Sequence record: MN850645.1
Direction: 5' to 3' (one strand)
Source of the DNA: Escherichia phage outra
Length of the DNA: 64,000 nt
In this document: one piece after another, positions 13,565-62,595 of the stretch
How the letters are laid out: each line of letters opens with the position of its first letter
How positions within the stretch are numbered: the first letter of the stretch is position 1
Translations under genes and position numbers: made by a program
The notes under the pieces: model-generated
The model's database searches: none
The model's input: the letters and a program-made list of their open reading frames with translations, nothing else
What the model was told of the DNA's origin: nothing

Positions 13565-13566
13565 TT

Positions 13567-15531: not shown

Positions 15532-15545
15532 GTGAGGAATAAAGA

Positions 15546-15983: not shown

Positions 15984-15994
15984 AAGGGGTTAAA

Positions 15995-17122: not shown

Positions 17123-17140
17123 GTAAGCCAGCAAATAAAA

Positions 17141-17164
17141 ACCCGCTCCGGCGGGTTTTCTTGT
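17141..17164 (+). terminator. rho-independent terminator
   Basis: ACCCGC-TCCG-GCGGGT stem-loop followed by TTTTCTTGT. Confidence 0.7.
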
Positions 17165-17196
17165 ATTGATGCCAGATTTAATAAGAGGAGTAATAG

Positions 17197-18369: not shown

Positions 18370-18921
18370 ATGCGGATTACTGATAAGTATGTGTTCTTCT
18401 TCTCGGCAAAAGATGAATTTAGCAACTGGTATCTATCATCTTTTATTGAACCTTTAGCTCCCAAGTATAATAATTCTATTACAAGTTCTGTTGAATTTAC
18501 TTGTGTGGAACAATATATGATGTGGAGAAAAGCATGTTTGTTTTATGATTACAACATTGCATCTTCTATTTTAACCGGAGATCTAAGATATACAGGAGAA
18601 AAAGAACAGGCATATTATAAGCGACTAGGTAGATTAGTTAAAGATTACGATGAAGCTACTTGGACTTCTTTACGGGAGAAGATTGTCAAGCGTGGTTTGT
18701 ATCTTAAATACACACAAAATGAAGATCTCAAAAATAAACTTATCGCTTACGCAGATAAGGAGTTCGTAGAGGCAAGCCCTTATGATTCTATTTATGGTAT
18801 CAAAATGGGAATGTGGGATCGTGATGTGGAAAATAAGGACTGTTGGAAAGGACAAAATCTTTTAGGAAAATGGCATACAGACCTTGCTGTTTATCTAAAA
18901 GCACAATCTGATATTTCCTGA
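18370..18921 (+). CDS. NADAR-family (YbiA-like, DUF1768) protein
   Basis: FFFS..DEFSNW, EQYMMWRKA and FVEASPYDSIYGIKMG blocks match the YbiA/NADAR pattern; ATG overlaps upstream stop (TAAATG). Confidence 0.65.
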   Translation: MRITDKYVFFFSAKDEFSNWYLSSFIEPLAPKYNNSITSSVEFTCVEQYMMWRKACLFYDYNIASSILTGDLRYTGEKEQAYYKRLGRLVKDYDEATWTSLREKIVKRGLYLKYTQNEDLKNKLIAYADKEFVEASPYDSIYGIKMGMWDRDVENKDCWKGQNLLGKWHTDLAVYLKAQSDIS

Positions 18922-24654: not shown

Positions 24655-25014
24655 ATGAAATCAGTAAAAGCAATCAAAACTTACATTGTATCGGCTATTT
24701 CTTTTGAAGGTACTACAACCGAAAAAGAAAAAATCACCGAACTGATGCGCCGTTTTAATTCTGAATACTGGTATCCCGATAATCAAAAACGTTACAATTA
24801 TAACGTGATCAAGGCGATAGCCTCATGGTTACAAGGTTTACCGTCAGACATTAACATTGCCTTTGATTATAACGAGATTGATCATTTATTAATTGAATGG
24901 AAGTACATAAAAGAAACAAGCAAAGAAACAACCGTTACCCGTGAGCGGGAAAATTATTGGTTATATATTGCAAGCATGATCGTAATCCTGGCAAAACAGC
25001 ATAACGTGGCGTAA
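24655..25014 (+). CDS. hypothetical protein (119 aa)
   Basis: ORF downstream of cassette. Confidence 0.55.
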   Translation: MKSVKAIKTYIVSAISFEGTTTEKEKITELMRRFNSEYWYPDNQKRYNYNVIKAIASWLQGLPSDINIAFDYNEIDHLLIEWKYIKETSKETTVTRERENYWLYIASMIVILAKQHNVA

Positions 25015-25029
25015 TTAAGAGGAAGAAAC

Positions 25030-25167
25030 ATGAACGCATCACAGCAGATCGAAAAATTCAACCGCAGCAAGGCGCGTAAAGATTGGAACGAAGAGATCAC
25101 CAAAAAAGGCGACAAGCGGAACAAAACAAAAAGAGATCGCAGCACAAAAAGATACTGGAACGAATAA
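25030..25167 (+). CDS. hypothetical small basic protein (45 aa)
   Basis: hand-translated; GAGGA SD; Lys/Arg-rich. Confidence 0.4.
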   Translation: MNASQQIEKFNRSKARKDWNEEITKKGDKRNKTKRDRSTKRYWNE

Positions 25168-25174
25168 CAAAAAA

Positions 25175-25196
25175 GGGCGCAATAAGCGCCCTTTTA
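25175..25196 (+). terminator. rho-independent terminator
   Basis: GGGCGC-AATAA-GCGCCC stem-loop followed by TTTT. Confidence 0.65.
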
Positions 25197-25286
25197 GCTT
25201 ATATAGGGGCTTGTTACCCATAGGCAATGGTAACGCCAGGGCAAGCCTATAAATCAACGTTAGACGGCTTTACAGGAGCTTTAAAA

Positions 25287-25469
25287 ATGAGATTAGAAGA
25301 AATAAGCAAGGCACTAGACCAGGAGCAAAGGTTATGCGCCCGATATCGTGATCAATATGGCTTCATAACTAGCGGCGTGATCCTGGGGATGGAAGGCAAT
25401 AAGATTTTTATTGACACGTTGAAAAACGTTGTATATAGTGACAATATAATCTCAATAAAACATATATGA
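25287..25469 (+). CDS. hypothetical small protein (60 aa)
   Basis: start moved to ATG 25287 with AGGAG SD. Confidence 0.4.
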   Translation: MRLEEISKALDQEQRLCARYRDQYGFITSGVILGMEGNKIFIDTLKNVVYSDNIISIKHI

Positions 25470-25477
25470 GGCAAGAA

Positions 25478-25879
25478 ATGAAAAACTTATTGATCGCTGG
25501 TTTAATCTCTTTTGGCATGGTTGGAACATCTAGCGCGGCGATATCCTCCACAGTAGCAGAATTAAGCGCCGTTGATGCAATGGAAAACGTCATGCTTATT
25601 AATAATGCGATCCCCGATGAAATCATGGAGGATTCACACATGATCGCTTATGGTGCTGTTACACAACTAACGGCAAAAATAGATAAATCTATTGTTAATG
25701 GCTTAAATGAAGATGTACCATGTGAAATTATTACCAGTGTGCTGACTACTCAAAATTTTACGCCGTGGTTAAAAAGTATTCAAAAAGTACACAGTACAGC
25801 CGCAGATCGTAGCAATGAAAAACTAGTGTCAGCACTTGCAACGTATACCCTAGCAAAATGCACTGAGATAAAAGATTGA
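25478..25879 (+). CDS. putative secreted/periplasmic protein
   Basis: MKNLLIAGLISFGMVGTSSA signal-peptide-like N-terminus; GAGG SD. Confidence 0.5.
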   Translation: MKNLLIAGLISFGMVGTSSAAISSTVAELSAVDAMENVMLINNAIPDEIMEDSHMIAYGAVTQLTAKIDKSIVNGLNEDVPCEIITSVLTTQNFTPWLKSIQKVHSTAADRSNEKLVSALATYTLAKCTEIKD

Positions 25880-27548: not shown

Positions 27549-27818
27549 ATGAAAATATCATTGGACGTTGCAATCAAGGCCATCGAATCCGGTTACACCC
27601 TGGTAAAAGATGATAAGGCTAAAATAGTGCATCATGTTAACAAGGAAACAGGCGAAAGCATGATCACATATAAAGCCGCCTACTTTCTCCAATCAGTAGC
27701 AGATCCGCGCGTACAACGCCAGGTTACGGCGGCTATTGCTAAAAAAGTATGTGCTTTACAGGGTACAAGTTTTAACGAGATCGCCCCGTGTTTTGACTGG
27801 TCGAGCTTGAAAAAATAG
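27549..27818 (+). CDS. hypothetical protein (89 aa)
   Basis: GAGG SD. Confidence 0.55.
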   Translation: MKISLDVAIKAIESGYTLVKDDKAKIVHHVNKETGESMITYKAAYFLQSVADPRVQRQVTAAIAKKVCALQGTSFNEIAPCFDWSSLKK

Positions 27819-27819
27819 T

Positions 27820-27847
27820 TTGACAATATGCGGTTATCTGGTAAAGT
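27820..27847 (+). promoter_or_regulatory. sigma70-like promoter (degenerate hairpin follows)
   Basis: -35 TTGACA 27820-25, -10 TAAAGT 27842-47. Confidence 0.5.
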
Positions 27848-27899
27848 GTACGACATAGGGCGGGGCAATAAGGCAACGCCCACTAATGAGGGTAAAATC

Positions 27900-35026: not shown

Positions 35027-35237
35027 GTTTAAAACTTTCTGTGCAATCACTGTTTGTCTTATTCTTGCATACGTGTTATTCTCTGGTATCGTTCGTTTAG
35101 GTGAGTATATGGCAAGAGAAGCTCGTGAAAGTGCAGCTAAAAAAGAACAGTGTATTGTGTTCAAGCATCAAAGAGATGCTGAAAAGTTTCTCGCACTTGA
35201 TTGCAATCGTTATGTATCTTATCAAATGTATGAGTAA
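35019..35237 (+). CDS. small membrane-anchored protein (72 aa), paralogue of 39728-39952
   Basis: start moved to ATG 35019 with GGAGGA SD; shares KE.CI..KH...AE.FL...CN.Y motif. Confidence 0.5.
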   Translation: MVKFKTFCAITVCLILAYVLFSGIVRLGEYMAREARESAAKKEQCIVFKHQRDAEKFLALDCNRYVSYQMYE

Positions 35238-43253: not shown

Positions 43254-43541
43254 ATGGAACTAGTGCAAGAAGTTTATGAAAAACTGAAAGAAGAGAATCT
43301 TGATTGGCCTGAACATGCTCTTATTGTCGTCAAAGATACTAATGGTGAAATAAAATTCTCAAGTGTAAGTGAAGATGATGTTGTCTTAAGTCCTACAGGA
43401 TATTATATGAGAGGTGTTACGTGTCTATTCAACACCAAAGTGTATCCTGAAATTAAACTTAGTTACGGTGAACCTGATCATCCAGAAATCGTTACACGTA
43501 ATGAATATGAAAATTATTATTTTGCTCGTGAAAGCAAATAA
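43254..43541 (+). CDS. hypothetical protein (95 aa)
   Basis: GAGGAGG SD. Confidence 0.55.
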   Translation: MELVQEVYEKLKEENLDWPEHALIVVKDTNGEIKFSSVSEDDVVLSPTGYYMRGVTCLFNTKVYPEIKLSYGEPDHPEIVTRNEYENYYFARESK

Positions 43542-43549
43542 GGAAAACT

Positions 43550-43873
43550 ATGCAAAAAATAAACACTGGTTCTCGTCCTAAACAGAAGCAAACAAAAGCA
43601 AGGGTATCTTATGTTGACAACTCTTGTTATAATTTCAAAAATGTTAAAGAAGTTATCATTGATGAAAAAGAAGGTTTGATTCACATTTCATCTGAACGTT
43701 TGAAAGGTAGTGTTACTCTTCGTGAGAATGTATCTATACCTATGAAAGTTGTGGCTACACTCTGTGTTGATAAACCAGATGTTGTTAACTACTATGTGTT
43801 CCGTGATAGTTGTATTTCATTACATAATAAGATTTTTAAATCTTCGCACGTTAAAACAAAACACATTGTATAA
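43550..43873 (+). CDS. hypothetical protein (107 aa)
   Basis: AAGGAAA SD. Confidence 0.55.
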   Translation: MQKINTGSRPKQKQTKARVSYVDNSCYNFKNVKEVIIDEKEGLIHISSERLKGSVTLRENVSIPMKVVATLCVDKPDVVNYYVFRDSCISLHNKIFKSSHVKTKHIV

Positions 43874-43880
43874 CACATAA

Positions 43881-43904
43881 ACCCGCTTCGGCGGGTTTTC
43901 TTGT
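43881..43904 (+). terminator. rho-independent terminator
   Basis: ACCCGC-TTCG-GCGGGT stem-loop followed by TTTTCTTGT. Confidence 0.7.
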
Positions 43905-43958
43905 ATGTGTGTTCTTTATTTGTTATAAGTATTCTTAGCATAAACAATAGGAGGTATT

Positions 43959-44180
43959 ATGTCTGTAGTTGTAGAAGGTAGTATTGGTTTCTTAGTAGAT
44001 AACCCTCACCCTTTCGTGGTTAAGGTTCATATTCAAGAAAAGGTAAGCAACAATACGTGGTTGTGCTTGTTAGATAGTAAGATACACTCTTATACAGAGG
44101 TTTATCTTCACACTTGGCAAATTGGTACGATAACAGCAGAGGATGAATTGATAATTGAATTATATGAACGAGATCTATAG
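43959..44180 (+). CDS. hypothetical protein (73 aa)
   Basis: AGGAGG SD. Confidence 0.5.
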   Translation: MSVVVEGSIGFLVDNPHPFVVKVHIQEKVSNNTWLCLLDSKIHSYTEVYLHTWQIGTITAEDELIIELYERDL

Positions 44181-44261
44181 ATGACTTTACTAGAGAGTAT
44201 CGTAGTGTTAATCATCTTTATCATTGTTGTCATAGGATATTTTACAGAAGACTAAAATAAA

Positions 44262-44292
44262 GCCCCTAGAAGCGATTCTAGGGGCTTTTGTT
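44262..44292. terminator. bidirectional rho-independent terminator at strand switch
   Basis: 8-bp stem GCCCCTAG/CTAGGGGC with T-runs on both sides; lies between convergent gene blocks. Confidence 0.6.
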
Positions 44293-44355
44293 TGCATTAG
44301 ATAGGGAAACGTATTACTAAAATAAAAAGTGCGTTAGAATGCGTTACAGGAGGTT

Positions 44356-44613
44356 TTAAGAATGCATAAAATCTTCTTCAGGGCAGGTTGAGAGATAAGA
44401 GATGCACGTTGGGACAACAACAACATTATCTTTAAGGTTTGCAACCAAGCCTTTTGTAATTCCAGCCACTGCCCCGTTAATATCTGCTTGACGGATACCA
44501 AAACCTTGTTGTGCGGATAGATAACAAAATCCCTCACCTTTCTGTTGATTATTATTGAAGTAATAAACGTAGTGCATCATAAAATGGTCTTTAACGATTT
44601 GTTCTGTGGTCAT
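44356..44613 (-). CDS. hypothetical protein (85 aa)
   Basis: GGAGAA SD. Confidence 0.5.
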   Translation of the reverse strand: MTTEQIVKDHFMMHYVYYFNNNQQKGEGFCYLSAQQGFGIRQADINGAVAGITKGLVANLKDNVVVVPTCISYLSTCPEEDFMHS

Positions 44614-44621
44614 AATATTCT

Positions 44622-44647
44622 CCTATAAGAAAAGGGGCTTTCGCCCC
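44622..44647 (-). terminator. rho-independent terminator
   Basis: GGGGC-TTTC-GCCCC stem-loop 3' of Sir2-like gene. Confidence 0.5.
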
Positions 44648-44657
44648 CTTGGTCAAG

Positions 44658-45470
44658 TTACTTAGTCAAATGATCTTCTATCATTTTTATGAAAGCAGGA
44701 TTGCTAAAAGCCTCTGCTGCCTTTTCTCTATAAACAAAGACTCCTCTATCTTCGTAAAGAAGAGTTTCTTCGTAATTAATTCCTGGGTTAACAACAATCA
44801 TTTTTGTACCCATATTAAGTGCAGGAAATAATTCCCAATTAAAATTGATAACTTGGTTTGAACATCCTACTACAACAACCAAATCTTGCATGGTCAGAGT
44901 ATCAAACAAGTAAGCCATATCTGCATACAAAGGTGCAGCCTCGCCAAAAAATACAACATTAGGCTTCACCCAGTTATAATCATCTATGTTTATACTATTG
45001 TAACCAATGTCTACCAGTGTTTTGTAATCTCCAGGATGCATACGGTAAACTACTTCAGGAAGATACCCGTGCACGTGAATAACAGAATCCCTGTCCACAC
45101 CTGCTCGCTCTAGTAGATCATCAACGTTTGTTGTCAAGTTTACTACTTGGTTAGGATATTCCTTAAACCACTTTGCTATTTGAATATGTGCAGCATTAGG
45201 TTGTACATCTTTAAGCTCAACACGTCTTTTGTTATAAAATTCGTGTGTTTTGGCATACAAATCCATACCGTTCTCGTCTACACCACCGACCACTGGAAGA
45301 TCTGGAGATGTTCTAACACGATAACCTGCTTGGAAAGCTCCAATATCGCAGACCTCTTCTAAATCATATTCTTCCCATAAGGCACGACCACTATCTGTGT
45401 CTGTTCGGAATGTTCGAATCCCACTGTCTGCACTTAAACCTGCGCCACTAACAAAAATTACTCTTCGCAT
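44658..45470 (-). CDS. Sir2-family (sirtuin-like) NAD-dependent protein
   Basis: N-terminal GAGLSADSGIRTFR, NAAH...TTNVDDLLERAG...IHVHG, VVFFGE blocks match sirtuin motifs; no CxxC...CxxC Zn ribbon seen. Confidence 0.7.
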   Translation of the reverse strand: MRRVIFVSGAGLSADSGIRTFRTDTDSGRALWEEYDLEEVCDIGAFQAGYRVRTSPDLPVVGGVDENGMDLYAKTHEFYNKRRVELKDVQPNAAHIQIAKWFKEYPNQVVNLTTNVDDLLERAGVDRDSVIHVHGYLPEVVYRMHPGDYKTLVDIGYNSINIDDYNWVKPNVVFFGEAAPLYADMAYLFDTLTMQDLVVVVGCSNQVINFNWELFPALNMGTKMIVVNPGINYEETLLYEDRGVFVYREKAAEAFSNPAFIKMIEDHLTK

Positions 45471-46012
45471 TCAATATCCTCTTCGTAATCATCATCCCAA
45501 GAAGATGCGTCGTAACGCTCTTCCTCTTCGAAATCCCAATTAATTTCTACTCCAAAATCTAAAAACAATTTAACAATGTTTTCTGTAGAATAGTATTTAT
45601 CATAAGCGTTAGCTAGTTCCCAATACTTGTCACTCAATTTTTTATAAATAGGATCATTATAGTCATAATCTACTTTATAACCATAGTCATACATCTCTTG
45701 TTCAGCTTTAAGCATAGCTTCTGGTGTAAGAAGATTAGGGAACGGACGATTTCTTTCTTTTAACTTAGAAGCGATCCAGTTTGCAACATTCGCCACTTCA
45801 CCATCTCGATTATCACCTAAACAACTTGCATAATCTCCATCTTGGTAAGTGCCTAAATCCCCACTAACTTCATGTACAATACTTGAATACGATCCACACG
45901 TTTCACAATCTGAAAAAGTGTCTACTGTTGTAATATCAATAGATAAAACTGGTAAAGCCATAGCTTCTTTCACACAAGCCTCCTCATATAATAACATATC
46001 ATCAAAACCCAT
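45458..46012 (-). CDS. hypothetical acidic protein (about 184 aa; start uncertain)
   Basis: track start 46027 is TTG; ATG 46012 has GGAGGA SD. Confidence 0.45.
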   Translation of the reverse strand: MGFDDMLLYEEACVKEAMALPVLSIDITTVDTFSDCETCGSYSSIVHEVSGDLGTYQDGDYASCLGDNRDGEVANVANWIASKLKERNRPFPNLLTPEAMLKAEQEMYDYGYKVDYDYNDPIYKKLSDKYWELANAYDKYYSTENIVKLFLDFGVEINWDFEEEERYDASSWDDDYEEDIECEE

Positions 46013-46020
46013 ATATCCTC

Positions 46021-46049
46021 CACACAAATAAAGCCCCTGATTGGGGCTT
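46021..46049 (-). terminator. rho-independent terminator or attenuator
   Basis: AAGCCCC-TGATT-GGGGCTT stem-loop plus T-rich tail on minus strand. Confidence 0.5.
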
Positions 46050-46066
46050 TGGTTAAGTTTTACGGA

Positions 46067-46675
46067 TTATACCAGACTTTTAAGGTACTTGTCAAGGGCT
46101 TCTTGATCACCTTGACAAACATAGCAACGGAAATCTTGAGCCGAGGGTTCTTTGTCCTCGTCCCAATCCCAATAAACAGTACCTTTATAACGTGAACCTG
46201 GGAACTCGAAATATGCTGTATGAGTGATATGATGTGGGCCACCCCAAAACTGTATAAAAGTAAATTGAGGATATGCTGCTTTAACTGTATTTTCAAACCA
46301 AGTTTTACGATCTAATGCTTCGTTTATAAAATAAGCATGGCGTTCCATTTCATCCCAGTTTTTCCAAACGCATTTTTCATCCAGAGAAAAAACAAAATCT
46401 TCACTGTTGAATTCATCTGTATCTTCCAAAATATCATAATCATGTGCACTAGGTATCCACCATCCAGCTTCTAATAGTGCTTTCACGGGTACAAAACCTT
46501 TTTCAGCATATTGATCAAATTCTTTTACTCTACGTACAGTGCAGTATTCATCTTCACCACCAATGTCCAGCAGACAAGCACCTTTGCGTCTTGCTGCAAG
46601 ACCATGTGTATCAAAAACTACAACACTACCTTCACCATCTTCACGATCTACTTGATATGCAACTTTTTGAGTCAT
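46067..46675 (-). CDS. hypothetical protein (202 aa)
   Basis: ORF in operon orientation. Confidence 0.55.
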   Translation of the reverse strand: MTQKVAYQVDREDGEGSVVVFDTHGLAARRKGACLLDIGGEDEYCTVRRVKEFDQYAEKGFVPVKALLEAGWWIPSAHDYDILEDTDEFNSEDFVFSLDEKCVWKNWDEMERHAYFINEALDRKTWFENTVKAAYPQFTFIQFWGGPHHITHTAYFEFPGSRYKGTVYWDWDEDKEPSAQDFRCYVCQGDQEALDKYLKSLV

Positions 46676-46676
46676 A

Positions 46677-46799
46677 TTACCCCCAATGTATATGGGAAAT
46701 TAACCAAAAGATAAATTCCCAAAAACACCAACCAAGAAAAGTTAATGGAATTATAAAAGCTATCAGAGCAGTCTTCCAGCCTTTCCACAATGTTTCCAT
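46677..46799 (-). CDS. hypothetical membrane peptide (40 aa)
   Basis: hand-translated; GGAGGAAT SD; Trp-rich hydrophobic. Confidence 0.35.
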   Translation of the reverse strand: METLWKGWKTALIAFIIPLTFLGWCFWEFIFWLISHIHWG

Positions 46800-47788
46800 T
46801 ATTCCTCCATACATTTAAGAATATGTGCAATGACAGGTATAGTCCAACCGTTGCCTAACATCTTATATGCTTGTGTGTTACTACTCACTTTAAAGTAATC
46901 ATCTGGAACACCTTGTAAGCGGCAACACTCTTTAACCGTTAACTTTCTATAATGTACGCCTTCACTCAATTTTTCAAAGGCATCTAGATATCTTCCAGGT
47001 GGAATGTAGGCTAATAGTACGTCTTTCGGCACAGTCGTGAGGCAACGAGTTTTTTCACTGTCCTGAACTTCCAAACAATGTACCAAACGATCAGTTTTAG
47101 ATGTACTACGTTTGCCATTTTCATTAATTCTACGCCCATATATTGCTGCCGGATAAAAAACCAGTTGTCTGCGACTCTTTTCAAAATACTGTTCTATATT
47201 ACCACCTTTGGCATAATTTGCATCTATGCAATAAGCCTTATCTCTGTCTACGATACTATCATCTTCAATGATATCTTGCAACACTTCATTGGTAATATCC
47301 CAAGGTTTTATTTCCCAATTGCACCAGTATAAACGTTGTCTATTCTGTGCCGTGAAATCTGCGGAGTTAATGAACACGGGATCAACACCTAAGTAACTTG
47401 TGATCACGTTTTCCCACTCCACCTTCATCTTAACGTTCTCAAGCATGAACTTAACATTAGGGTTAAACTTTTTAATATGTTCAAGAATTTCAACATATTC
47501 AAAGAACAGTTTAGATCGCGGATCTTGAAAGTTCAAACCCTTACCAGAAGAAGAGAAGCCTTGGCACGGGCTACCACCTAACAAAAGATCAATTTCTCCC
47601 CACGGGATATCCCATTCTCTCCATTTTGTAACATCACCTAACTGAATAATATCTGGAAAATTTGCTTGGCTTTCGGCTATGGCAAATTTGTCTAATTCTG
47701 AAGCATAATATGTATCTACTTCAATACCTGCACTTTTTAGCGCAAGCATTCCTCCTGACATACCATCAAAAAGACTTAAAACTTTCAT
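46799..47788 (-). CDS. DNA (cytosine-5)-methyltransferase
   Basis: motif I LFDGMSGG, motif IV GGSPCQGFS, ENV motif. Confidence 0.85.
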   Translation of the reverse strand: MKVLSLFDGMSGGMLALKSAGIEVDTYYASELDKFAIAESQANFPDIIQLGDVTKWREWDIPWGEIDLLLGGSPCQGFSSSGKGLNFQDPRSKLFFEYVEILEHIKKFNPNVKFMLENVKMKVEWENVITSYLGVDPVFINSADFTAQNRQRLYWCNWEIKPWDITNEVLQDIIEDDSIVDRDKAYCIDANYAKGGNIEQYFEKSRRQLVFYPAAIYGRRINENGKRSTSKTDRLVHCLEVQDSEKTRCLTTVPKDVLLAYIPPGRYLDAFEKLSEGVHYRKLTVKECCRLQGVPDDYFKVSSNTQAYKMLGNGWTIPVIAHILKCMEE

Positions 47789-51828: not shown

Positions 51829-52491
51829 TTATTTAATATTCAATTTTGCACAAAGACGTTGTACCGCTTTGGCATCGAACAAACTCCCACGAATAGTTCT
51901 CTTTCCTGATTCATTCAGATGCTTTGCAATCGTCATATATGGCGTTTTACAAGCTCTGTATGCAACTAAAGAATCTTTTAAAGAAAGCGCAAACTCTCTT
52001 GAGCGTTTTGCTTCTTCCGTTTTCGTATAATCTGTTCTTTTGTATTTAGGGTTTGCTGCACCAAGAAGCGTTCCCTTCGCTTTTGCTACCTTAAGGCTCT
52101 TCTTAACACGATCAGATATTGCACGAGCCTCTTCTTCTGCCAGAACTGCTAAAATATTTATTATCATATTTTCAGCGGAGGGCATAGTTGCTATTCGTAC
52201 ATTAATCATCTCTAACAAGGTTGCAACAGAAGCTGTGTTACGTCCCAGACGGTCAACCTTAGCAACAACAAGTGTAGCACCTGTTTCCTTGCAAAGATTA
52301 ACAGCTTTTACAAGCTCTCTACGTTGCTTCCAATCACCTTTACCAGAATAAAACTCTGCAAAGCTACCTACAATAGTATAATTTTCTTGTGAATCCAGGA
52401 AGCGTTGGATATCTGCTTCCTGTGATTCTATACCATACTGGTTGCCTTGTTGTTTCTTCTTAGAAAGTCGATGATACAGTACAAACTTCAT
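51829..52491 (-). CDS. serine recombinase (resolvase/invertase family)
   Basis: N-terminal YHRLSKKKQ (catalytic Ser), VDRLGRN motif, C-terminal HTH-like region; 220 aa. Confidence 0.75.
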   Translation of the reverse strand: MKFVLYHRLSKKKQQGNQYGIESQEADIQRFLDSQENYTIVGSFAEFYSGKGDWKQRRELVKAVNLCKETGATLVVAKVDRLGRNTASVATLLEMINVRIATMPSAENMIINILAVLAEEEARAISDRVKKSLKVAKAKGTLLGAANPKYKRTDYTKTEEAKRSREFALSLKDSLVAYRACKTPYMTIAKHLNESGKRTIRGSLFDAKAVQRLCAKLNIK

Positions 52492-55145: not shown

Positions 55146-55898
55146 TTAATATACTTCCGTGATGAACTGAGACAAACGGGAACGTTGGTTATCAGCAGTT
55201 GTCATTTCAACATAACCAATAAAATCCACAATAGCTTCCCTTTCTCCTTCTTCATTAATAGGAACAACACGATCTAACAAATCACCTAACCCGTTAGCTC
55301 TTCGTTTAATTGCATATGTTTGATTAATATCACCCATAATGACAATACGTGTATTAAGACCTGCTCGCTCAAGGAGAAGTTTTACTGTATTTGGTGACAT
55401 AAGTTGAACTTCATCAATAAGAATAATGCTGTTATCCCACGTAGCACCTAGTGCATAGTTTGGAATATTAAGTTCAATTTTGCCACTTGCAATATCGTTT
55501 TCCAATTTATTTGCAGTCATAAACTGTTGGAAAATTCTTTTAGTTGATTCGTAGTGTGCTGCTAGTTTATCAGTCTTATCTCCAGATAAGAAACCAATTT
55601 GATCATCACCTACTTCTGTCGGGTTTTTAAGGAAAATCAACTTTCTGAAATCACCAGCTTTAAGCATTTGCAATGCTTTCCATAGTGCTGTTGTCGTTTT
55701 TCCTGTTCCTGCTGGGGCGTTAACAATGGTTAAATCATTCCAAACCATGCTTCTTACAATAGCTTCTTGATTCCCAACAGGGGTAAATTCATCAAGACGG
55801 TAATCATCATTTCCTACTGCTTTAGCCGCATAACGACTGGCACGTTTGTCATCATTGGCTGCTGATTGACGACGAGCCTTTGCGGTTTTATTTCCCAT
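55146..55898 (-). CDS. phoH: PhoH-family ATPase
   Basis: Walker A NAPAGTGKTT, Walker B ILIDEVQ, IVIMGDINQ; AAGGAG SD. Confidence 0.85.
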   Translation of the reverse strand: MGNKTAKARRQSAANDDKRASRYAAKAVGNDDYRLDEFTPVGNQEAIVRSMVWNDLTIVNAPAGTGKTTTALWKALQMLKAGDFRKLIFLKNPTEVGDDQIGFLSGDKTDKLAAHYESTKRIFQQFMTANKLENDIASGKIELNIPNYALGATWDNSIILIDEVQLMSPNTVKLLLERAGLNTRIVIMGDINQTYAIKRRANGLGDLLDRVVPINEEGEREAIVDFIGYVEMTTADNQRSRLSQFITEVY

Positions 55899-55915
55899 GT
55901 TTGCACTCCTTATAA

Positions 55916-55934
55916 AAGGGGCTTTCGCCCCTTT
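55916..55934 (-). terminator. rho-independent terminator or attenuator
   Basis: AAGGGGC-TTTC-GCCCCTT stem-loop between lysozyme and phoH. Confidence 0.45.
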
Positions 55935-55936
55935 GT

Positions 55937-56437
55937 TTAGTTATAAGCGTCTAATGTTCCAGTTTTAAGCACCTGAATTACACGCTCTGCGCGATTAGGC
56001 GTTTGGCGATACCATTTACTTTTACGTAAATTTATAGAGGCTTGAGTATAATATGAATTACTCACTAAAGTCAAGCTATTTTTGAAAGATTCTGCACCTT
56101 TCAACCCCATTTGAAATACCATATTAATAATAGCCATTTTACGATTAGGACTTACTTTATCGTAAATAGGAGATAATATGGTACTTGAATGGATTTGTTG
56201 TATCGCTTTCTTTACATCACTTTCAAAGATTCTTCTAGCTTCCGCTTCAGTAATAACTCCATTGGTTTTTCTACCTACTAAGTTATCAAGAATGCGTATA
56301 GCTTCTGCTTTATCTTTGAGTTTTGTCAGAAGGTGTCCAATACCAACTGTCCAATACCCTTCGGTATCAGGATATACAGTTAGCTTTAGTCCTTCATCAA
56401 AACGTAACATATCAAACACATCAACTACTTTAGCCAT
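55937..56437 (-). CDS. T4-type lysozyme (GH24 endolysin)
   Basis: MLRFDEGLKLTVYPDTEGYWTVGIGHLL matches the T4 lysozyme catalytic region (Glu, Asp, Thr); 166 aa. Confidence 0.9.
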   Translation of the reverse strand: MAKVVDVFDMLRFDEGLKLTVYPDTEGYWTVGIGHLLTKLKDKAEAIRILDNLVGRKTNGVITEAEARRIFESDVKKAIQQIHSSTILSPIYDKVSPNRKMAIINMVFQMGLKGAESFKNSLTLVSNSYYTQASINLRKSKWYRQTPNRAERVIQVLKTGTLDAYN

Positions 56438-56449
56438 GTTTTCCTTATA

Positions 56450-56593
56450 TTAGTCGCCCTCCCCATGATCTAGCTCTTGAAACAGTAGGTGTTCAGGAGA
56501 CATTTCACGTTTAGGCTTCGTCTTTTTAGTTTGGGACTTAAGCTCTGTTGCCAAAGCACGAGAAAAGATCTTACGTTTCTGTTTACCTTTCAT
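56450..56593 (-). CDS. hypothetical small basic protein (47 aa)
   Basis: hand-translated; GGAG SD. Confidence 0.3.
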   Translation of the reverse strand: MKGKQKRKIFSRALATELKSQTKKTKPKREMSPEHLLFQELDHGEGD

Positions 56594-56597
56594 ATTG

Positions 56598-56864
56598 TTA
56601 CTCCGCAATCTGAGCCATGAATTCACGTAGTTCAGAAAAACCTCCTACGTGGGTTAGCTGTTCACCATCTTCCACAAAAATTTGAGGAAATGTGCGTGGT
56701 AGAACACCTGTTTTCTCTAAAACCAGATTCTGAATCTGATCTAAAGAATAGTCTTCATCTAAGGTAAGGTATTTAAAATCCTGTTCACGCTGTTCTAGTA
56801 GAATCTTAGCGTTAGTGCAGAAAGGACAATTTGGTTTACCGTAGATAATAAAATTCATTTTCAC
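56598..56864 (-). CDS. glutaredoxin (T4 NrdC-like)
   Basis: YGKPNCPFC active-site CxxC, 88 aa, thioredoxin-fold length. Confidence 0.8.
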   Translation of the reverse strand: MKMNFIIYGKPNCPFCTNAKILLEQREQDFKYLTLDEDYSLDQIQNLVLEKTGVLPRTFPQIFVEDGEQLTHVGGFSELREFMAQIAE

Positions 56865-57691
56865 TCCTTGTTTAAAAGTATAGTTAAAGTTTTTACAATA
56901 CCGCTATCAACACTTCGCGGATTTAAAGTAGGATCTGTTTTTAAATAAGATGTTGCTGGTCTGACTGCTTTGGAATTATAGGTTGAAGCAGATACAGGAT
57001 TAACTGTAACAGACAAATCTATAACAAGAAATATCTTTCGTGCAAAATCATACCAAGAAATATAATCTGCACCTGCATAGTGTACAATTTTACTATTTAC
57101 ACCATCTTTTACAAGTTTAAAAATTGTTTCTGCAAGATCAGGTGCATAAGTAGGACATGATAAATGATCACATACTACATTAAATTCTTTTTGACCACCG
57201 TTGTAGCGTTCCAACATAGTTTTCAAAAAGTTATGTCCAAATTCACTATAAACAGAAGCTGTTCTGATAATAAGTGCTGTAGGACAAACTGCTTGTACTA
57301 AAGTTTCACCTAATTGTTTACTGTAACCGTAGGTGTTCAAGGGGTTTGTTTTACTCTCTTCTGTGCCAGCAACATGCCCATCAAAAACATAGTCTGTTGA
57401 AATATGTACAAACTGTATCAGTAAATCATTACATGCTTTGGCAATGTTTGTTGCACCGTATGCATTAACATTTATACAGGTGTTAACATCTTCTTCAGCT
57501 TTATCTACTGCCGTGTAAGCCGCACAATTCACAACAACATCAGGCACGTGCTGTACAAGACTATTCATAACATCTTTAAAGTTGGTAATGTCTATATCAC
57601 TTGCTTCAATCAAAATAACATCTTCGGGCGCAACTTTTGCCAAAGACTGTCCTAATTGACCTTTTGAACCAAAGATTAAAAATTTTGTCAA
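56861..57691 (-). CDS. rmlD: dTDP-4-dehydrorhamnose reductase
   Basis: N-terminal Rossmann FGSKGQLG, 276 aa, operon context after rmlC. Confidence 0.75.
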   Translation of the reverse strand: MTKFLIFGSKGQLGQSLAKVAPEDVILIEASDIDITNFKDVMNSLVQHVPDVVVNCAAYTAVDKAEEDVNTCINVNAYGATNIAKACNDLLIQFVHISTDYVFDGHVAGTEESKTNPLNTYGYSKQLGETLVQAVCPTALIIRTASVYSEFGHNFLKTMLERYNGGQKEFNVVCDHLSCPTYAPDLAETIFKLVKDGVNSKIVHYAGADYISWYDFARKIFLVIDLSVTVNPVSASTYNSKAVRPATSYLKTDPTLNPRSVDSGIVKTLTILLNKE

Positions 57692-58242
57692 AATATCATC
57701 TCCTTTAGTGTTTTGGCTTGCTGATCTTTTTGTGACAAGATAGGTTTAAAATTAATATCATTAAAGATTAAATCAAAACCCCAATCTACATTGATATCTG
57801 GATCATTCCACGCAAGACTACACTCGGAAGTCGGATCGTAATATTCTGTACATTTATATTCAAAATCAGCAATGTCGCTAATCACAACAAAACCATGAGC
57901 GAAACCAGGAGGAATCCAAAATTGTGTTTTATTCTTTTCAGATAAAAGAACACCTACCCATTCTCCAAATGTTGGACTACCAACCCTAATATCTACAGCA
58001 ACATCATAAACTTCACCACGAACACAACGTACTAACTTCCCTTGTGGGTTTTTCTTTTGAAAATGAAGCCCACGTAGAACTCCTCGAATAGAACGTGAGT
58101 GGTTATCCTGGACAAAGTTTTGTTTACCTATGTATTGATCATATAAAGCCTGATTAAAACTTTCTAAGAAAAAGCCACGTTCATCTCCGTAAACGTCAGG
58201 TTGAATGATCAACAAATCTTCGATTTTTGTTGCTTGAATCAT
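57688..58242 (-). CDS. rmlC: dTDP-4-dehydrorhamnose 3,5-epimerase
   Basis: 184 aa cupin-like, RGLHFQ motif, operon context. Confidence 0.75.
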   Translation of the reverse strand: MIQATKIEDLLIIQPDVYGDERGFFLESFNQALYDQYIGKQNFVQDNHSRSIRGVLRGLHFQKKNPQGKLVRCVRGEVYDVAVDIRVGSPTFGEWVGVLLSEKNKTQFWIPPGFAHGFVVISDIADFEYKCTEYYDPTSECSLAWNDPDINVDWGFDLIFNDINFKPILSQKDQQAKTLKEMIF

Positions 58243-58254
58243 TTAATCTCCCCT

Positions 58255-59124
58255 TTATTTTAATTTAAGTAAATACTTGCCGTAGTCTGTTTTACTTAAA
58301 ACCTCTCCAGAACTTTTTACGGAATCTAAAGTAATCCATTCATTTTTAAAAGCAATCTCTTCTAGGCATGCAACCTTCATACCTTGTTGCTTTTCTATTG
58401 CATGAACAAATTGAGATGCTTCCATAAGACTTTCATGTGTTCCTGTATCCAACCAAGTGAAACCTCTTCCTAGCTTACAGACACGTAAAGCCTTTTCTTT
58501 CCAGTACATCTCATTTATATCTGTGATCTCTAACTCCCCTCTAGCAGAAGGCTTAACGCTTTTAGCTTTCTGTATAACAGAATTATCGTAAAAGTACAAG
58601 CCTGTAATTGCATAGTTGCTTTTTGGTGCTTTTGGTTTTTCTTCAATACTTACCACTGTACCTTCAGAATCAAACTCAACAACACCAAACCTTTCAGGAT
58701 CATTTACGTGATACCCAAAAATATTAGCTCCACCATTCTTTTCAATATGTTCTCTAGCAGAATCTAAAATGCTACCAAAACTCTGACCAAAGAATAAATT
58801 ATCACCTAGAACAAGTGCTACAGAATCTTCACCAATAAAGCTCTCACCAATAATAAACGCTTCTGCTAAACCTTTTGGGCTGTCCTGTATTGCATACTGT
58901 AGGGAAACACCAAAAGAAGAACCATCACCTAAAAGATTTACAAAATTAATTTGATCTTCTGGTGTTGTAATTATTAGTATTTCCCTAATTCCAGAAAGCA
59001 TTAGGACAGAGAGTGGATAATAAATCATAGGTTTATCATAAATTGGTAATAGTTGTTTACTAACCCCTTTAGTAACTGGGTAAAGTCTTGTTCCACTACC
59101 ACCTGCTAAGATAATACCTTTCAT
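58255..59124 (-). CDS. rmlA: glucose-1-phosphate thymidylyltransferase
   Basis: [18 protein letters not shown] nucleotidyltransferase signature, 289 aa. Confidence 0.85.
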
Positions 59125-59132
59125 ACTCCTCC

Positions 59133-60122
59133 TTAAACTTTATTTTCCCACCACTCTTTGTTATCTACATACCAATCAATGGTTGAATAAAGTTTTTCTT
59201 CAAATGTGCCTTTAGCTTTCCACCCTAATTCCTTTTCAATCTTATAAGGATTCACTTCATATCTTAAATCATGCCCAGGCCTATCTGTAACCATCTCAAT
59301 GAGGCTACAAGCATCTGTTTCAGATGGATATACCGCATCCATATAATCGCAAATCATATAGATTACATCAATATTAGTTCTAGGGTTTCTGCTCCCAATA
59401 TTATATGTCTCTCCAGATTTGCCTTTAGTTACTACTAGGTGTAATGCTTCTGCGTGATCGTCAACGTATAACCAATCTCTTACTTGAAGACCATTGCCAT
59501 AAACAGGGATTGGTTTATTCATTAAGATATTTGTTATCGTCTTAGGTATTAGTTTTTCTGGATGATGATATGCTCCAAAATTATTTGAACAATTTGTTAT
59601 AACTGTCGGAATACCATAAGTACGATGCCACGCTCTTACCAAATGATCGCTTGCAGCTTTAGATGCAGCATATGGACTACTTGGTTTATAAGGATTCTGT
59701 TCTGTAAACGGATAATCCCCTTCTTCCATATCACCATACACTTCATCTGTTGAAATATGATGGAACATTTTAAGATTTGATTTATCTCCCATTAAACGAA
59801 CAGCTTCTAGAAGATTAAATGTCCCAACAATATTTGAATTTATAAAAACACTCGGTGATGCTATTGAATTATCTACGTGACTTTCTGCTGCAAGATGCAT
59901 TATATAATCTGGATTAACATCTGCCACAATCTTAGCAGTTAACTGTGCATTTGTCAAGTCAACACGACAAAACTTTACATTAGGTGTTTCTGATAAATTT
60001 CTAGGGTCTGAAGCGTAACCCCATTTATCTATAACGTAAATATCATTCTTAGTATTTTTAGCTAGGAAACGAACTACCGCACTTCCAATAAAGCCTAAAC
60101 CACCTGTTACTAAGTATTTCAT
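59133..60122 (-). CDS. rmlB: dTDP-glucose 4,6-dehydratase
   Basis: TGGLGFIGS Rossmann motif, YAASK (YxxxK) catalytic motif, 329 aa. Confidence 0.8.
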
Positions 60123-60316
60123 TTAGTCTCCTTCCAATTATTCCCTTCAGTAAAAATAATACCTTCATAAAACAACCATCTGGAACCTTTTTCAACAGGA
60201 ACAGGAAGCTCTTCTTCAGTAAAGTTATAAACCTCTCTAGCATCTTCTAAAAGTGATGCAAATGTTTTTGGACTTACTGTTACGCGAGGAGCATTGATCA
60301 GTTGATCTAGCATCAT
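60119..60316 (-). CDS. hypothetical protein (65 aa)
   Basis: start moved to ATG 60316 with AAGGAGGA SD. Confidence 0.4.
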   Translation of the reverse strand: MMLDQLINAPRVTVSPKTFASLLEDAREVYNFTEEELPVPVEKGSRWLFYEGIIFTEGNNWKETK

Positions 60317-60329
60317 TCTACTATCCTCC

Positions 60330-60656
60330 TTACCAAACGTGTTGAGAAATAATAGTTTCCGTTTCAATGTTATATTTTTCAAGAAGTTGTGCATAGGCTT
60401 CTTTTGCATTTTTATTTAGTTGCTCAAGATCTACAGCTACACTTCCTTCGCCACCTTCTAAATAAATGCCATATATGCAATAAGATTCATCAGCGTCATA
60501 GAAAGGAGAGATACGACTTAAATCAAGACCTTCTTGTAAGAACCAGTTAAAATCTCCATCAAATTCTTCTTCAATTCTAGGATCTTCTCCTACAGCTTCT
60601 TCCCATTTATTAAAAGGTGCGCCCTGTAACATACGCCATTCAATATTAGTTCCCAT
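60330..60656 (-). CDS. hypothetical acidic protein (108 aa)
   Basis: ORF in operon orientation. Confidence 0.5.
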   Translation of the reverse strand: MGTNIEWRMLQGAPFNKWEEAVGEDPRIEEEFDGDFNWFLQEGLDLSRISPFYDADESYCIYGIYLEGGEGSVAVDLEQLNKNAKEAYAQLLEKYNIETETIISQHVW

Positions 60657-60792
60657 TATCTTCCTCTTCTTCTTTTTCTTTAGTATGAACGAAACCTAGA
60701 CCGTTACAATTCCAACAAGGAATAAATTGTTCCATACTAACAATAAAATTCCCAGTACCCCCGCAGATAGGACAAATACTCACACCATCCAT
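60646..60792 (-). CDS. small Zn-ribbon protein (48 aa)
   Basis: hand-translated; CPICGG...CWNCNG. Confidence 0.35.
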   Translation of the reverse strand: MDGVSICPICGGTGNFIVSMEQFIPCWNCNGLGFVHTKEKEEEEDNGN

Positions 60793-60794
60793 TA

Positions 60795-61001
60795 TTAAAG
60801 CTCCTCAATCTTTTCTAACATCTGTTTTAACTCATTCTCTGTTAACAGAATTTCTGTGATACCATCGTAAGTTTCTACCATCAGAGTAAAACATTTTTCC
60901 CCATCCGAACACACAAAAGCACCACCTTCCTCTTCTGTTAAGTCAGAATTAATATCTACATCAACAAAATCAATCATCTTTTTCTCCTTTGATAATTTCA
61001 A
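60795..61001 (-). CDS. hypothetical acidic protein (68 aa)
   Basis: ORF in operon orientation. Confidence 0.45.
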   Translation of the reverse strand: MKLSKEKKMIDFVDVDINSDLTEEEGGAFVCSDGEKCFTLMVETYDGITEILLTENELKQMLEKIEEL

Positions 61002-61188
61002 ACTTGGCTACACCATTAACTATAATATGACCGCAAGACATAACTCCTAGCCAATGATCACCATTCTTTTTTAAACGTTTGCCGTAAACATCACAGAAAC
61101 CATTCTGTAATTCGGAAGCCTCGTAAGAGGCTCCCTTTTCGAAAACGTCTTTGAAGTCAGAAATTAATCCAACACAAAGTAGTTTCAT
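60970..61188 (-). CDS. hypothetical protein (72 aa)
   Basis: ORF in operon orientation. Confidence 0.45.
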   Translation of the reverse strand: MKLLCVGLISDFKDVFEKGASYEASELQNGFCDVYGKRLKKNGDHWLGVMSCGHIIVNGVAKFEIIKGEKDD

Positions 61189-62273
61189 TAAAAGTCTAAC
61201 TCCTCGTCATCACTTACATCTTTATTTGCTGAATTCAGTTTGTAAGCTGTAATTTGGATCTCCTGTGCTGCTGCTTGAATTTGATCTGGATTTAACCAAA
61301 CATCCATCCAAGGCAGTGGACTTTTCTTCGGTGCACGGAATTTGTGTTTCATTTTCAGTCTGCGATAGATAGGTGCAGCATTGAAGTAAACCCAAAGTTT
61401 GAACAACTCTGCGTTACCACCAACGATAACCCTTCCTTCACTAAACAGATAGTCACACCAATCTTCCTCTTGTCCAACTACCGTATCGAGAATTTCTGTC
61501 AGAACGTCGATATTGTCTTCGTATACTTTTCTCCAGACAGGATCTTTCAGCAGTGCATCAATAATAGCATAATCCATTTTAACGTGCAATAGTTCATCCA
61601 ACATAATTTTTTGAATGAGTTTAGCTGCACCTACAAACAATTGCTGCTCTGCTAAGGCAAATGTTGCAGCAAAAGAGGAGATGAACTGAATACCTTCCAG
61701 ACCGATAAGTGCAATCATTCCTTTCAGGATCAGTAGACGAAGGTTATCATCCTTCTCAATCAGACCTAGAGCATATTTATGTCCTGCCTCTGCCAGATCA
61801 CTCATTATCTCTTCAACTATACCCATCCTCTGGAAGATTCTTTCATTCTCCATGATCTGATCGATAACTTCATTTGGATTAGGGATACACTGACGAATAA
61901 TTTCAGAATATGTCAAAGCGTGTAAAACTTCCATTTCTGATTGCTTCATCATCATTGCACATGCTTCGTTGTTACTTAAAAATGGTGCAAACAAAGTGAT
62001 GATTGATTTAGCAAGTGAATCATTTTCCCATTGGAAAGATAGGTTTTTGATCATAACATCATAGTTGCTTTTAGAACAAGCTACGAAATCTTTTCGTGTC
62101 TGATCTAAGTTTACTTCGTTTTCATCCCAATCTTGCTGTTTTTGTAGTTTGTACAGACGATGCATTTCTGGGTATGTTACATTAATAGAATCAAAAATAC
62201 CTAACTGTTCGCCCAAAAATACAGGGTAGAAACCTTCTTTGTAAGTGTCGTTGTATAAATTAATTGCTGCCAT
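61188..62273 (-). CDS. nrdB: ribonucleotide reductase small (beta) subunit, class I
   Basis: di-iron ligand blocks EVLH and LEGIQFISSFAATFALAE...LDELLH, acidic C-terminal tail. Confidence 0.85.
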   Translation of the reverse strand: MAAINLYNDTYKEGFYPVFLGEQLGIFDSINVTYPEMHRLYKLQKQQDWDENEVNLDQTRKDFVACSKSNYDVMIKNLSFQWENDSLAKSIITLFAPFLSNNEACAMMMKQSEMEVLHALTYSEIIRQCIPNPNEVIDQIMENERIFQRMGIVEEIMSDLAEAGHKYALGLIEKDDNLRLLILKGMIALIGLEGIQFISSFAATFALAEQQLFVGAAKLIQKIMLDELLHVKMDYAIIDALLKDPVWRKVYEDNIDVLTEILDTVVGQEEDWCDYLFSEGRVIVGGNAELFKLWVYFNAAPIYRRLKMKHKFRAPKKSPLPWMDVWLNPDQIQAAAQEIQITAYKLNSANKDVSDDEELDF

Positions 62274-62595
62274 TTAAATCCTCCACAATATCACACATTG
62301 CTTTTATTGTATCAATGTGTTCTTTCTCCATACCATGCTCTATGTAAGCCTTCTCTAATGCGTTCCATACACTCTTTGTGAGTAGTACAGTAACTTCTCC
62401 CTCATATCTTGCCCTGGTTAAAGCATACCAGGTAGCTATGGGATCATTGGAAGCCCATATTTCAACACTGGAAAATTGAAAACCTGCAATATAATGACAA
62501 CACCAATCGAATGTAAAATCTTTACTATCTACCAGTGTATAATTGCCCCAACGCCTTTGTGGTGTTGCCCCAGGTAATACAACTAATGTAGGCAT
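62260..62595 (-). CDS. hypothetical protein (111 aa) between nrdA and nrdB
   Basis: start moved to ATG 62595 with AAGGAGGAAT SD. Confidence 0.45.
   Translation of the reverse strand: MPTLVVLPGATPQRRWGNYTLVDSKDFTFDWCCHYIAGFQFSSVEIWASNDPIATWYALTRARYEGEVTVLLTKSVWNALEKAYIEHGMEKEHIDTIKAMCDIVEDLNGSN

Follow-up and report, generated by a model that had tools for sequence, protein, structure and literature searches.

The dTDP-L-rhamnose genes of Escherichia phage outra and the glycosyltransferases that they may supply in phi92-like phages

Introduction

Phages of the subfamily Stephanstirmvirinae, among them phi92, phAPEC8, the BASEL phages Bas60-62 and the isolates of Olsen (2020), carry four genes, rmlB, rmlA, rmlC and rmlD, for the synthesis of deoxythymidine diphosphate (dTDP)-L-rhamnose. 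The cluster was discussed by Olsen (2020), who put forward the hypothesis of DNA glycosylation, and Maffei (2021; PMC8594841) refer to a "putative dTDP glycosylation machinery" in phi92-like phages. Neither the genes nor the DNA-glycosylation idea are new here, and no experimental test of the function of the cluster was found in the literature searched. We analysed the rml cluster in a stretch of 64,000 nucleotides from Escherichia phage outra (sequence record MN850645.1), referred to below as the window. Selection acts on the cluster, which is conserved throughout a subfamily of broad-host-range coliphages; these phages serve in phage-therapy and biocontrol work and belong to the BASEL reference collection. 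We propose with moderate confidence that it gives the phage a host-independent supply of dTDP-rhamnose for its own soluble glycosyltransferases (GTs), acting on a cytoplasmic acceptor other than DNA. The present analysis adds a link between the cluster and a specific GT module lying outside the window, the transfer of the neighbouring glutaredoxin to the ribonucleotide-reductase module, a natural variant in which rmlC and rmlD alone remain, the finding that members of the GT families lie near genes for 6-deoxyhexose enzymes and for the head elsewhere among phages, and a downgrading of the DNA-glycosylation hypothesis. This narrows the problem, as likely partner enzymes can be named and a natural minimal variant, consisting of rmlC, rmlD and GTs, was found.

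The window is collinear with positions 59,232-123,160 of phage EmilieFrey (Bas61) and, apart from short gaps, 97-98% identical to it. By alignment it is another isolate of the known phi92-like genome type, a lytic myovirus, which agrees with the initial annotation of the window, where the phage was taken to be virulent. The 4.1-kb rml region is 98-99% identical to that of more than 50 Justusliebigvirus phages in GenBank (phi92, EmilieFrey, alia, VEcB and others), and the four enzymes are already annotated in most of these records. The phage phAPEC8 shows the same arrangement, B-A-C-D followed by the glutaredoxin gene, and nothing substantive separates the published cluster of the subfamily from the one described here. 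Four records named "Campylobacter phage" (MG065639, MG065645, MG065656 and MG065689) are 98.5% identical to the window phage over the rml cluster; with such identity to an E. coli phage, the host label is probably wrong.

The rml genes and their enzymes

Five co-directional and tightly packed open reading frames (ORFs) occupy positions 56598-60122 of the window:

59133-60122, minus strand: rmlB, dTDP-glucose 4,6-dehydratase, 329 aa
58255-59124, minus strand: rmlA, glucose-1-phosphate thymidylyltransferase, 289 aa
57688-58242, minus strand: rmlC, dTDP-4-dehydrorhamnose 3,5-epimerase, 184 aa
56861-57691, minus strand: rmlD, dTDP-4-dehydrorhamnose reductase, 276 aa, TTG start
56598-56858, minus strand: glutaredoxin, 86 aa, CPFC active site, assigned to the ribonucleotide-reductase module

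Enzyme identity was judged by NCBIfam equivalog models with their curated cutoffs, and domains by Pfam gathering cutoffs. RmlB scored 443.3 bits with TIGR01181 (cutoff 365.1) and aligned over residues 1-327 with Salmonella enterica RmlB (1g1a, 6e-117), keeping the GxxGxxG, Thr-Asp-Glu (TDE) and YxxxK motifs, with the stretch PYAASKAAS aligned. RmlA scored 471.5 bits with TIGR01207, the short form (cutoff 360.65), and matched S. enterica RmlA (1iim, 8e-125) over residues 2-288 with the nucleotide-binding signature GGSGTRL preserved. For RmlC the sole NCBIfam match was TIGR01221, at 259.7 bits (cutoff 155.75); in the alignment with 1dzr (9e-64) the catalytic residues of the cupin fold, the His of RGLHFQ and the Lys of QGKLVRC, are kept. 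RmlD passed TIGR01214 by a modest margin (254.3 bits, cutoff 224.05) and retains STDYVFDG and YxxxK when aligned with 1vl0 (2e-44). It fell below the cutoff of the enterobacterial-type model NF007440 (139.6 versus 308), and it is closer to the solved Firmicute-type enzymes 1vl0 and 3sc6 than to Salmonella RmlD (1kbz). E-values of the four enzymes span 1e-75 to 1e-142, which excludes chance, and the Pfam search agreed on all four.

The initial annotation had claimed a complete rmlB-A-C-D pathway in a single minus-strand cluster and had asked for a profile check of each enzyme. Both the claim and the check came out positive, as all four intact genes exceed the equivalog cutoffs and match their solved namesakes over the full length; the same scores and alignments speak against another nucleoside diphosphate (NDP)-sugar pathway. 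By these profile matches the four genes encode every step of the RmlA-D route to dTDP-L-rhamnose. In the predicted sequence of reactions RmlA would join glucose-1-phosphate and dTTP into dTDP-glucose, RmlB would dehydrate this to dTDP-4-keto-6-deoxy-D-glucose, RmlC would epimerise C3 and C5 of the 4-keto intermediate, and RmlD would reduce C4 to give dTDP-L-rhamnose.

Glycosyltransferases of phi92-like phages

No glycosyltransferase had been visible in the window at first reading, and this was upheld by three kinds of evidence: tblastn with the four GTs of EmilieFrey gave no homolog in the window, Pfam detected no GT domain in the 10 larger uncharacterised window ORFs of one scan or in the eight window ORFs of another, and the annotation of EmilieFrey lists no GT in the span matching the window. 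In EmilieFrey the four GT genes are located at 44,552-47,728, beside primase/helicase and DNA polymerase (PolA) genes and 11.5-14.7 kb beyond the position matching the left edge of the window. They were annotated by the BASEL authors as putative disaccharide synthases and glycosyltransferases. As judged from this close relative, the missing GT partner exists in this genome type. The set comprises two GT4-type GT-B paralogs, one GT2-like GT-A protein with a DXD motif, and one small GT. All four are predicted to be soluble, with a maximum 19-residue hydropathy of at most 1.21 and no segment of transmembrane grade.

Co-distribution was assessed by tblastn against 50,697 phage records, where counts were taken by organism label and from sampled rows. 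RmlC was found in 105 Escherichia, 8 Klebsiella and 5 mislabelled "Campylobacter" records. The corresponding numbers were 106, 10 and 5 for GT0046, and 105, 9 and 5 for the small GT, GT0049. The phage distribution of the GTs thus matches that of rmlC. A ThyX-like gene, which the phi92-like phages share with rV5-like phages including RudolfGeigy, was present in 284 Escherichia-phage records, so most of these carry neither RmlC nor the GTs.

Homologs of the GTs in independent phage lineages adjoin genes for RmlB-like 4,6-dehydratases or related sugar enzymes of the short-chain dehydrogenase/reductase (SDR) type, according to the gene neighbourhoods inspected. In a 135-kb phage contig the order is small GT, SDR, GT-A, GT-B, primase and PolA, and another phage lineage has a similar arrangement. 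In Streptomyces phage KimJongPhill a GT-B lies with a methyltransferase and an RmlB-like SDR. In a 41-kb phage contig (ENA ERZ23498390, scaffold_1508) an elaborate sugar cluster at 10001-17873 begins with a GT-B and a GT2; two unknown genes and another GT-B follow, and then come an RmlD-like SDR, a radical-SAM/SPASM enzyme and a DegT aminotransferase. Each of the three GT families also has homologs in small phages, where they adjoin terminase, portal, protease or capsid genes, and two of these homologs lie next to a methyltransferase as well. One apparent further case, "Acinetobacter phage MD-2021a", was discarded as an independent phage with rml and GT genes, since its contig 3 (CAKLQF020000003.1) is a fragment of a bacterial chromosome with glnE, ilvE and aspS. 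A bacterial GT-B homolog in Burkholderia adjoins an invasin-like adhesin, which is too thin to interpret.

Sequence-only searches of the PDB with the GTs gave nothing useful. Fold searches identified GT folds, but neither donor nor acceptor. The top matches of the GT-B proteins included enzymes with lipid-linked acceptors (PglA-type, PglH, PimA/PimB and WaaG), and T4 AGT, T4 BGT and the HY126 DNA arabinosyltransferase were also among the matches.

A reduced variant in a Klebsiella phage

Klebsiella phage KP13-26 (OP617743.1), of the same subfamily but of a Klebsiella-phage clade, differs from the window phage in being a naturally reduced form, in which rmlC and rmlD are the only rml genes. Its rml locus lies at 43398-44806 of the record and keeps rmlC (77%), rmlD (61%) and the glutaredoxin gene in the corresponding place. 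Neither rmlA nor rmlB was found anywhere in the 144-kb genome, and the 65-aa ORF which precedes rmlB in the window is also absent from the locus. Three GTs are kept: a GT-B protein like GT0047 (66%), a small GT like GT0049 (74%) and a divergent GT-A protein like GT0048 (35%), the gene of the last one having moved to the early region (record 25011-25643). Since only rmlC, rmlD and the GTs are retained, the last two steps of the pathway form the conserved core. In the tblastn counts RmlA occurred in 87 Escherichia records versus 105 for RmlC, and in the RmlA search Klebsiella phages were outside the ten commonest organism labels. These counts suggest that the variant is not unique to KP13-26, for which alone it is confirmed.

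Age and origin of the cluster

Compared with EmilieFrey, the four rml genes show 36 synonymous and 12 non-synonymous differences (dN/dS 0.05-0.21) and are under purifying selection. Compared with phAPEC8, the four proteins are 54-72% identical and the synonymous sites are saturated. The GC content at third codon positions (GC3), 0.20-0.24, is that of the neighbouring endolysin and phoH genes.

The likeness to the bacterial rfb/rml operons of S. enterica and E. coli (rfbBDAC) extends to the four enzyme families, their catalytic residues and the chemistry. The phage cluster differs from them in being encoded by a lytic phage and in its place between nrdB and the glutaredoxin gene, without the adjacent GT, flippase or polymerase genes of bacterial O-antigen clusters. 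A recent capture from the host was considered and rejected, because none of 5,426 complete E. coli genomes matches the cluster at more than about 67% DNA identity, the gene order is B-A-C-D in the phage versus rfbB-D-A-C in the host, and the GC3 is ameliorated. By these measures the rml cluster is an old, maintained and compositionally ameliorated resident of the phage lineage.

Proposed role of the phage-made dTDP-rhamnose

A dedicated deoxysugar supply, as the initial annotation had suggested, is the natural reading of a four-enzyme pathway. All Enterobacterales make dTDP-4-keto-6-deoxyglucose for the enterobacterial common antigen (ECA) by means of RffH and RffG. Every one of the 5,426 E. 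coli genomes matched the rml cluster at least through a thymidylyltransferase gene, and many of them, O157:H7 included, matched solely at one such gene, the median being one matching place. RmlC and RmlD are therefore the steps which a broad-host-range phage cannot count on, and this fits the minimal set of KP13-26. Many Enterobacterales hosts lack RmlC and RmlD, and by bringing its own enzymes the phage would make its donor supply independent of host serotype, while RmlA and RmlB would raise the flux. The rml genes were inserted into a nucleotide-metabolism operon, between nrdB and the reductase-associated glutaredoxin. We infer that the dTDP-rhamnose is consumed by the soluble GTs encoded outside the window, which would assemble a glycan with rhamnose on an acceptor in the cytoplasm. 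E. coli K-12 probably has a dTDP-rhamnose supply of its own, and phenotypes of phage knock-outs would then be masked unless the host pathway is also removed.

As acceptor, our leading but tentative guess is the structural proteins of the virion. We lean this way on circumstantial grounds, because each of the three GT families recurs beside terminase, portal or capsid genes in small phages. In giant viruses a virus-encoded L-rhamnose pathway serves virion glycans, by the UDP-rhamnose rather than the dTDP route. Chloroviruses and mimiviruses thus resemble the phi92-like phages in encoding an L-rhamnose nucleotide pathway and in carrying their own GTs, and differ in the nucleotide. The concept of virion glycosylation is also cited for mycobacteriophages, where capsid and tail are glycosylated by virus-encoded GTs; the likeness to their loci lies in the GT homologs with a methyltransferase beside head genes, as found in other small phages. 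In phi92-like phages the GTs differ from those of virion-glycosylating viruses in lying beside replication genes and not structural genes. A rhamnose-glycosylated virion would be the first among coliphages, a less radical novelty than rhamnose on DNA. Rhamnose on virions would bear on how therapeutic phages are recognised by the immune system, on their stability and on their contacts with receptors.

Several points weigh against the proposal that the phage supplies rhamnose to GTs of its own. No experiment found in the literature searched places rhamnose on a component of the phage, or a glycan on a Stephanstirmvirinae virion. The GT module is deduced from relatives 98-99% identical to the window and not from the window's own genome, and in the linear EmilieFrey record the rml and GT genes are not adjacent but about 70 kb apart. 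The co-occurrence is largely confined to one subfamily, where common descent could account for it with no functional link, and it was established by organism labels and sampled rows. The GTs have generic folds, which reveal neither donor nor acceptor. Finally, the GTs are part of a replication module, not of a structural one, which would fit a role in DNA modification as well as one in the virion.

Possible modification of the host envelope

Within the infected cell, the dTDP-rhamnose and the GTs could instead modify lipid-linked precursors of the lipopolysaccharide (LPS) core, O-antigen, capsule or ECA. Such remodelling would mask phage receptors, leading to superinfection exclusion or to less loss of progeny on cell debris. 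We consider this unlikely, although it has some evidence on its side. ECA synthesis shares the intermediate dTDP-4-keto-6-deoxyglucose with the rml pathway. Among the top GT-B fold matches are enzymes acting on undecaprenyl- or other lipid-linked acceptors. Infection by EmilieFrey needs both ECA (wecB) and LPS core (waaC, waaG) (PMC8594841), so receptor editing is conceivable. Rhamnose is natural in many enterobacterial O-antigens and, as cited from Klein (2011), in a K-12 core glycoform.

The predicted solubility of the four GTs argues against an envelope role, as does the annotation of EmilieFrey, which has no flippase, GtrA/B/C-like or Wzx/Wzy-like gene. In this the phi92-like GTs also differ from seroconverting systems of the GtrABC type, with no membrane-embedded GT among them. 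The known precedents for phage-driven modification of surface glycans come mainly from temperate phages. In small phages, moreover, the GT homologs sit in head and packaging operons and not with membrane proteins. If rhamnose were nevertheless placed on the host surface, it would represent a receptor-editing strategy in a lytic phage.

Possible glycosylation of phage DNA

T-even phages glucosylate 5-hydroxymethylcytosine and RB69 arabinosylates 5-hydroxycytosine, and these systems serve as models for DNA rhamnosylation. In the hypothesis of Olsen (2020) the GTs would put rhamnose on a modified base of phage DNA, which would thereby evade nucleases. The likeness of the phi92-like phages to the T-even glucosyl-5-hydroxymethylcytosine and the RB69, DLP3 and HY126 arabinosyl-5-hydroxycytosine systems consists in phage-encoded NDP-sugar synthesis together with several GTs among DNA-metabolism genes. 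The rml genes are located in a nucleotide-metabolism operon, and several lineages have the GT module next to primase/helicase and PolA. T4 AGT and BGT have the GT-B fold as well, and these two, with the HY126 enzyme, were among the fold matches. The GT-A protein GT0048 weakly matches the Pfam family TAGT (23.3 bits) and a PHROG of beta-glucosyl-HMC-alpha-glucosyltransferases (E 5e-5). That the hypothesis is already in the literature also speaks for it.

We nevertheless find this use of the sugar improbable. Maffei (2021; PMC8594841) describe phi92-like phages as "exceptionally susceptible" to restriction systems of types I, II and III. The known plan of DNA glycosylation, as seen in the work on arabinosyl-5-hydroxycytosine, includes a ThyA-family enzyme which makes a hydroxyl-bearing pyrimidine nucleotide, a phage-made NDP-sugar, GTs acting on DNA, and DNA highly resistant to restriction. 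The first and the last of these elements fail here: no ThyA-family hydroxylase or hydroxymethylase was found, and the phages are sensitive to restriction. The donor differs as well, as the T-even and RB69 systems use UDP-glucose or UDP-arabinose and the phi92-like phages would use a dTDP-6-deoxyhexose. No report of rhamnosylated phage DNA was found in the literature searched.

Three leads towards DNA glycosylation were followed up and rejected. Firstly, the sole thymidylate-synthase-like gene is of the ThyX type (PF02511, 36.9 bits). In EmilieFrey it is bas61_0225 (record 24839-25810), annotated as "thymidylate synthase", a divergent protein of 323 aa which reaches 35.5 bits with TIGR02170 (cutoff 87.9) and has no sequence match in the PDB. 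It could have been a hidden base-modifying enzyme. Its homologs, though, were present in 1,034 phage records from many host genera, including rV5-like, ICP1, PB1-like and N4-like phages and many phages without rml or GTs; it is therefore uncoupled from both.

Secondly, a base-hydroxylating TET/JBP enzyme was sought near a DNA methyltransferase gene of the window:

46799-47788, minus strand: Dcm-like C5-cytosine DNA methyltransferase, 150 bits

No TET/JBP domain was present in the ORFs scanned around it, which are not all ORFs of the genome, and the EmilieFrey annotation lists none. Dam-like methyltransferases are found in relatives too, and phi92-like phages are restriction-sensitive all the same.

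Thirdly, the resemblance of GT0048 to T-even-type DNA glycosyltransferases failed on closer profile testing. The TAGT score (PF20691) stayed below the gathering cutoff of 27.5 and covered residues 16-75 only. Out of 141 profile relatives of GT0048, 63 matched Glyco_transf_7C, 46 matched Glycos_transf_2 and 20 weakly matched TAGT, and the fold is a generic GT2-like one.

There is a slim chance that Stephanstirmvirinae attach L-rhamnose, alone or in an oligosaccharide, to DNA on an unconventional acceptor. Such rhamnose might be sparse or sequence-specific, so that classical restriction enzymes are not blocked while another defence is countered. Rhamnose on DNA would be a new kind of modification, the first rhamnosylated DNA and a new route of DNA glycosylation.

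The least convincing explanation is pure metabolic diversion, in which dTTP or dTDP-4-keto-6-deoxyglucose is removed, or dTDP-rhamnose acts by feedback inhibition, with no need for a rhamnosylated product; KP13-26 with rmlC and rmlD only must draw on the host 4-keto pool, and ECA is a receptor for these phages, but we regard the diversion as very improbable, because rmlA and rmlB of Justusliebigvirus and Phapecoctavirus would refill the intermediate which a drain should deplete, and because the pathway closely follows three or four GTs in its distribution, even in a phage that has lost rmlA and rmlB, which points to use of the product. The phage also invests in dTTP through ThyX, thymidine kinase and two ribonucleotide reductases, so that wasting it makes little sense, and the diversion of dTTP pools offered by the initial annotation does not fit the GT co-occurrence.

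The operon and the glutaredoxin

Upstream of the rml genes lie two features which delimit the cluster:

60119-60316, minus strand: 65-aa ORF with no function assigned, directly upstream of rmlB; bas61_0215 in the EmilieFrey annotation
61188-62273, minus strand: nrdB, class I ribonucleotide reductase beta subunit, upstream boundary of the rml insertion

The genes are closely joined. The ATG of rmlB overlaps the stop of the 65-aa ORF as ATGA, and the TTG start of rmlD overlaps the rmlC stop as TTGA, with a Shine-Dalgarno sequence, AAGGAG, upstream. The rml operon is probably translationally coupled with its neighbours. The glutaredoxin begins just after the rmlD stop, most likely at the ATG at 56858, giving 86 aa, and not at the GTG at 56864. 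This ATG is favoured because its own AAGGAG Shine-Dalgarno precedes it, and the annotation of EmilieFrey agrees. No intrinsic-terminator-like site was found on the minus strand in 55800-62400, and a scan for promoters and terminators gave a result no better than shuffled sequence. From the gene layout, the rml genes probably share one long transcript with the upstream reductase genes and the downstream endolysin and phoH.

The glutaredoxin was recognised by Pfam PF00462 (45.4 bits versus 22.9) and by its CPFC (CxxC) motif, read directly. It passes none of the NCBIfam glutaredoxin equivalog cutoffs (GrxA, Grx3, NrdH). In the rV5-like phage RudolfGeigy nrdA, nrdB and the glutaredoxin gene are uninterrupted, and the region has no rml genes. 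In the window and in phAPEC8, nrdA and nrdB are followed by a few small ORFs and then by rmlB-A-C-D and glutaredoxin. The rml genes therefore interrupt, as an insertion, a ribonucleotide-reductase module that is otherwise conserved. The simplest role for the glutaredoxin is that of redox partner of the reductase, and its adjacency to rml is incidental. Its presence beside the rml genes, as first pointed out, is real, but a link to the pathway does not hold, as the gene is contiguous with nrdAB in rV5-like phages lacking rml. The nrdB gene is annotated in EmilieFrey, phAPEC8 and KP13-26, with 84-88% amino-acid identity between genera. A truncation of nrdA at the window edge was considered and rejected; the reading frame simply runs off the window.

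Other observations in the window

Some further features were noted outside the rml region. A 390-aa ORF at 17197-18369 on the plus strand combines three CapR-homology domains with a T5orf172 domain and resembles a homing endonuclease; it lies exactly at the gap in the EmilieFrey alignment at 17235-17483, which suggests a mobile insertion or replacement. Other short stretches unaligned with EmilieFrey, at 13255-13566, 27556-27874 and 35192-35236, are regions of small ORFs. The first of these belongs to a minus-strand block just before the strand switch at about 14 kb, the other two to a plus-strand block.

A NADAR-domain protein (126 bits) is encoded at 18370-18921 on the plus strand and a Sir2-family protein at 44658-45470 on the minus strand. 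Relatives carry, outside the part matching the window, a macrodomain protein, a phosphoribosyltransferase, a phosphoribosyl pyrophosphate (PRPP) synthetase and a nicotinamide phosphoribosyltransferase (NAMPT). Together these have the appearance of a NAD/ADP-ribose toolkit, which probably serves counter-defence. At 51829-52491 on the minus strand, this phage, which is regarded as strictly lytic, encodes a serine recombinase (Resolvase N-terminal domain, 78 bits). The sign of the GC skew flips at about 14 kb and about 44 kb, where the gene blocks switch between the minus and plus strands, and a stretch of low GC content (0.32) was observed at 30-32 kb.

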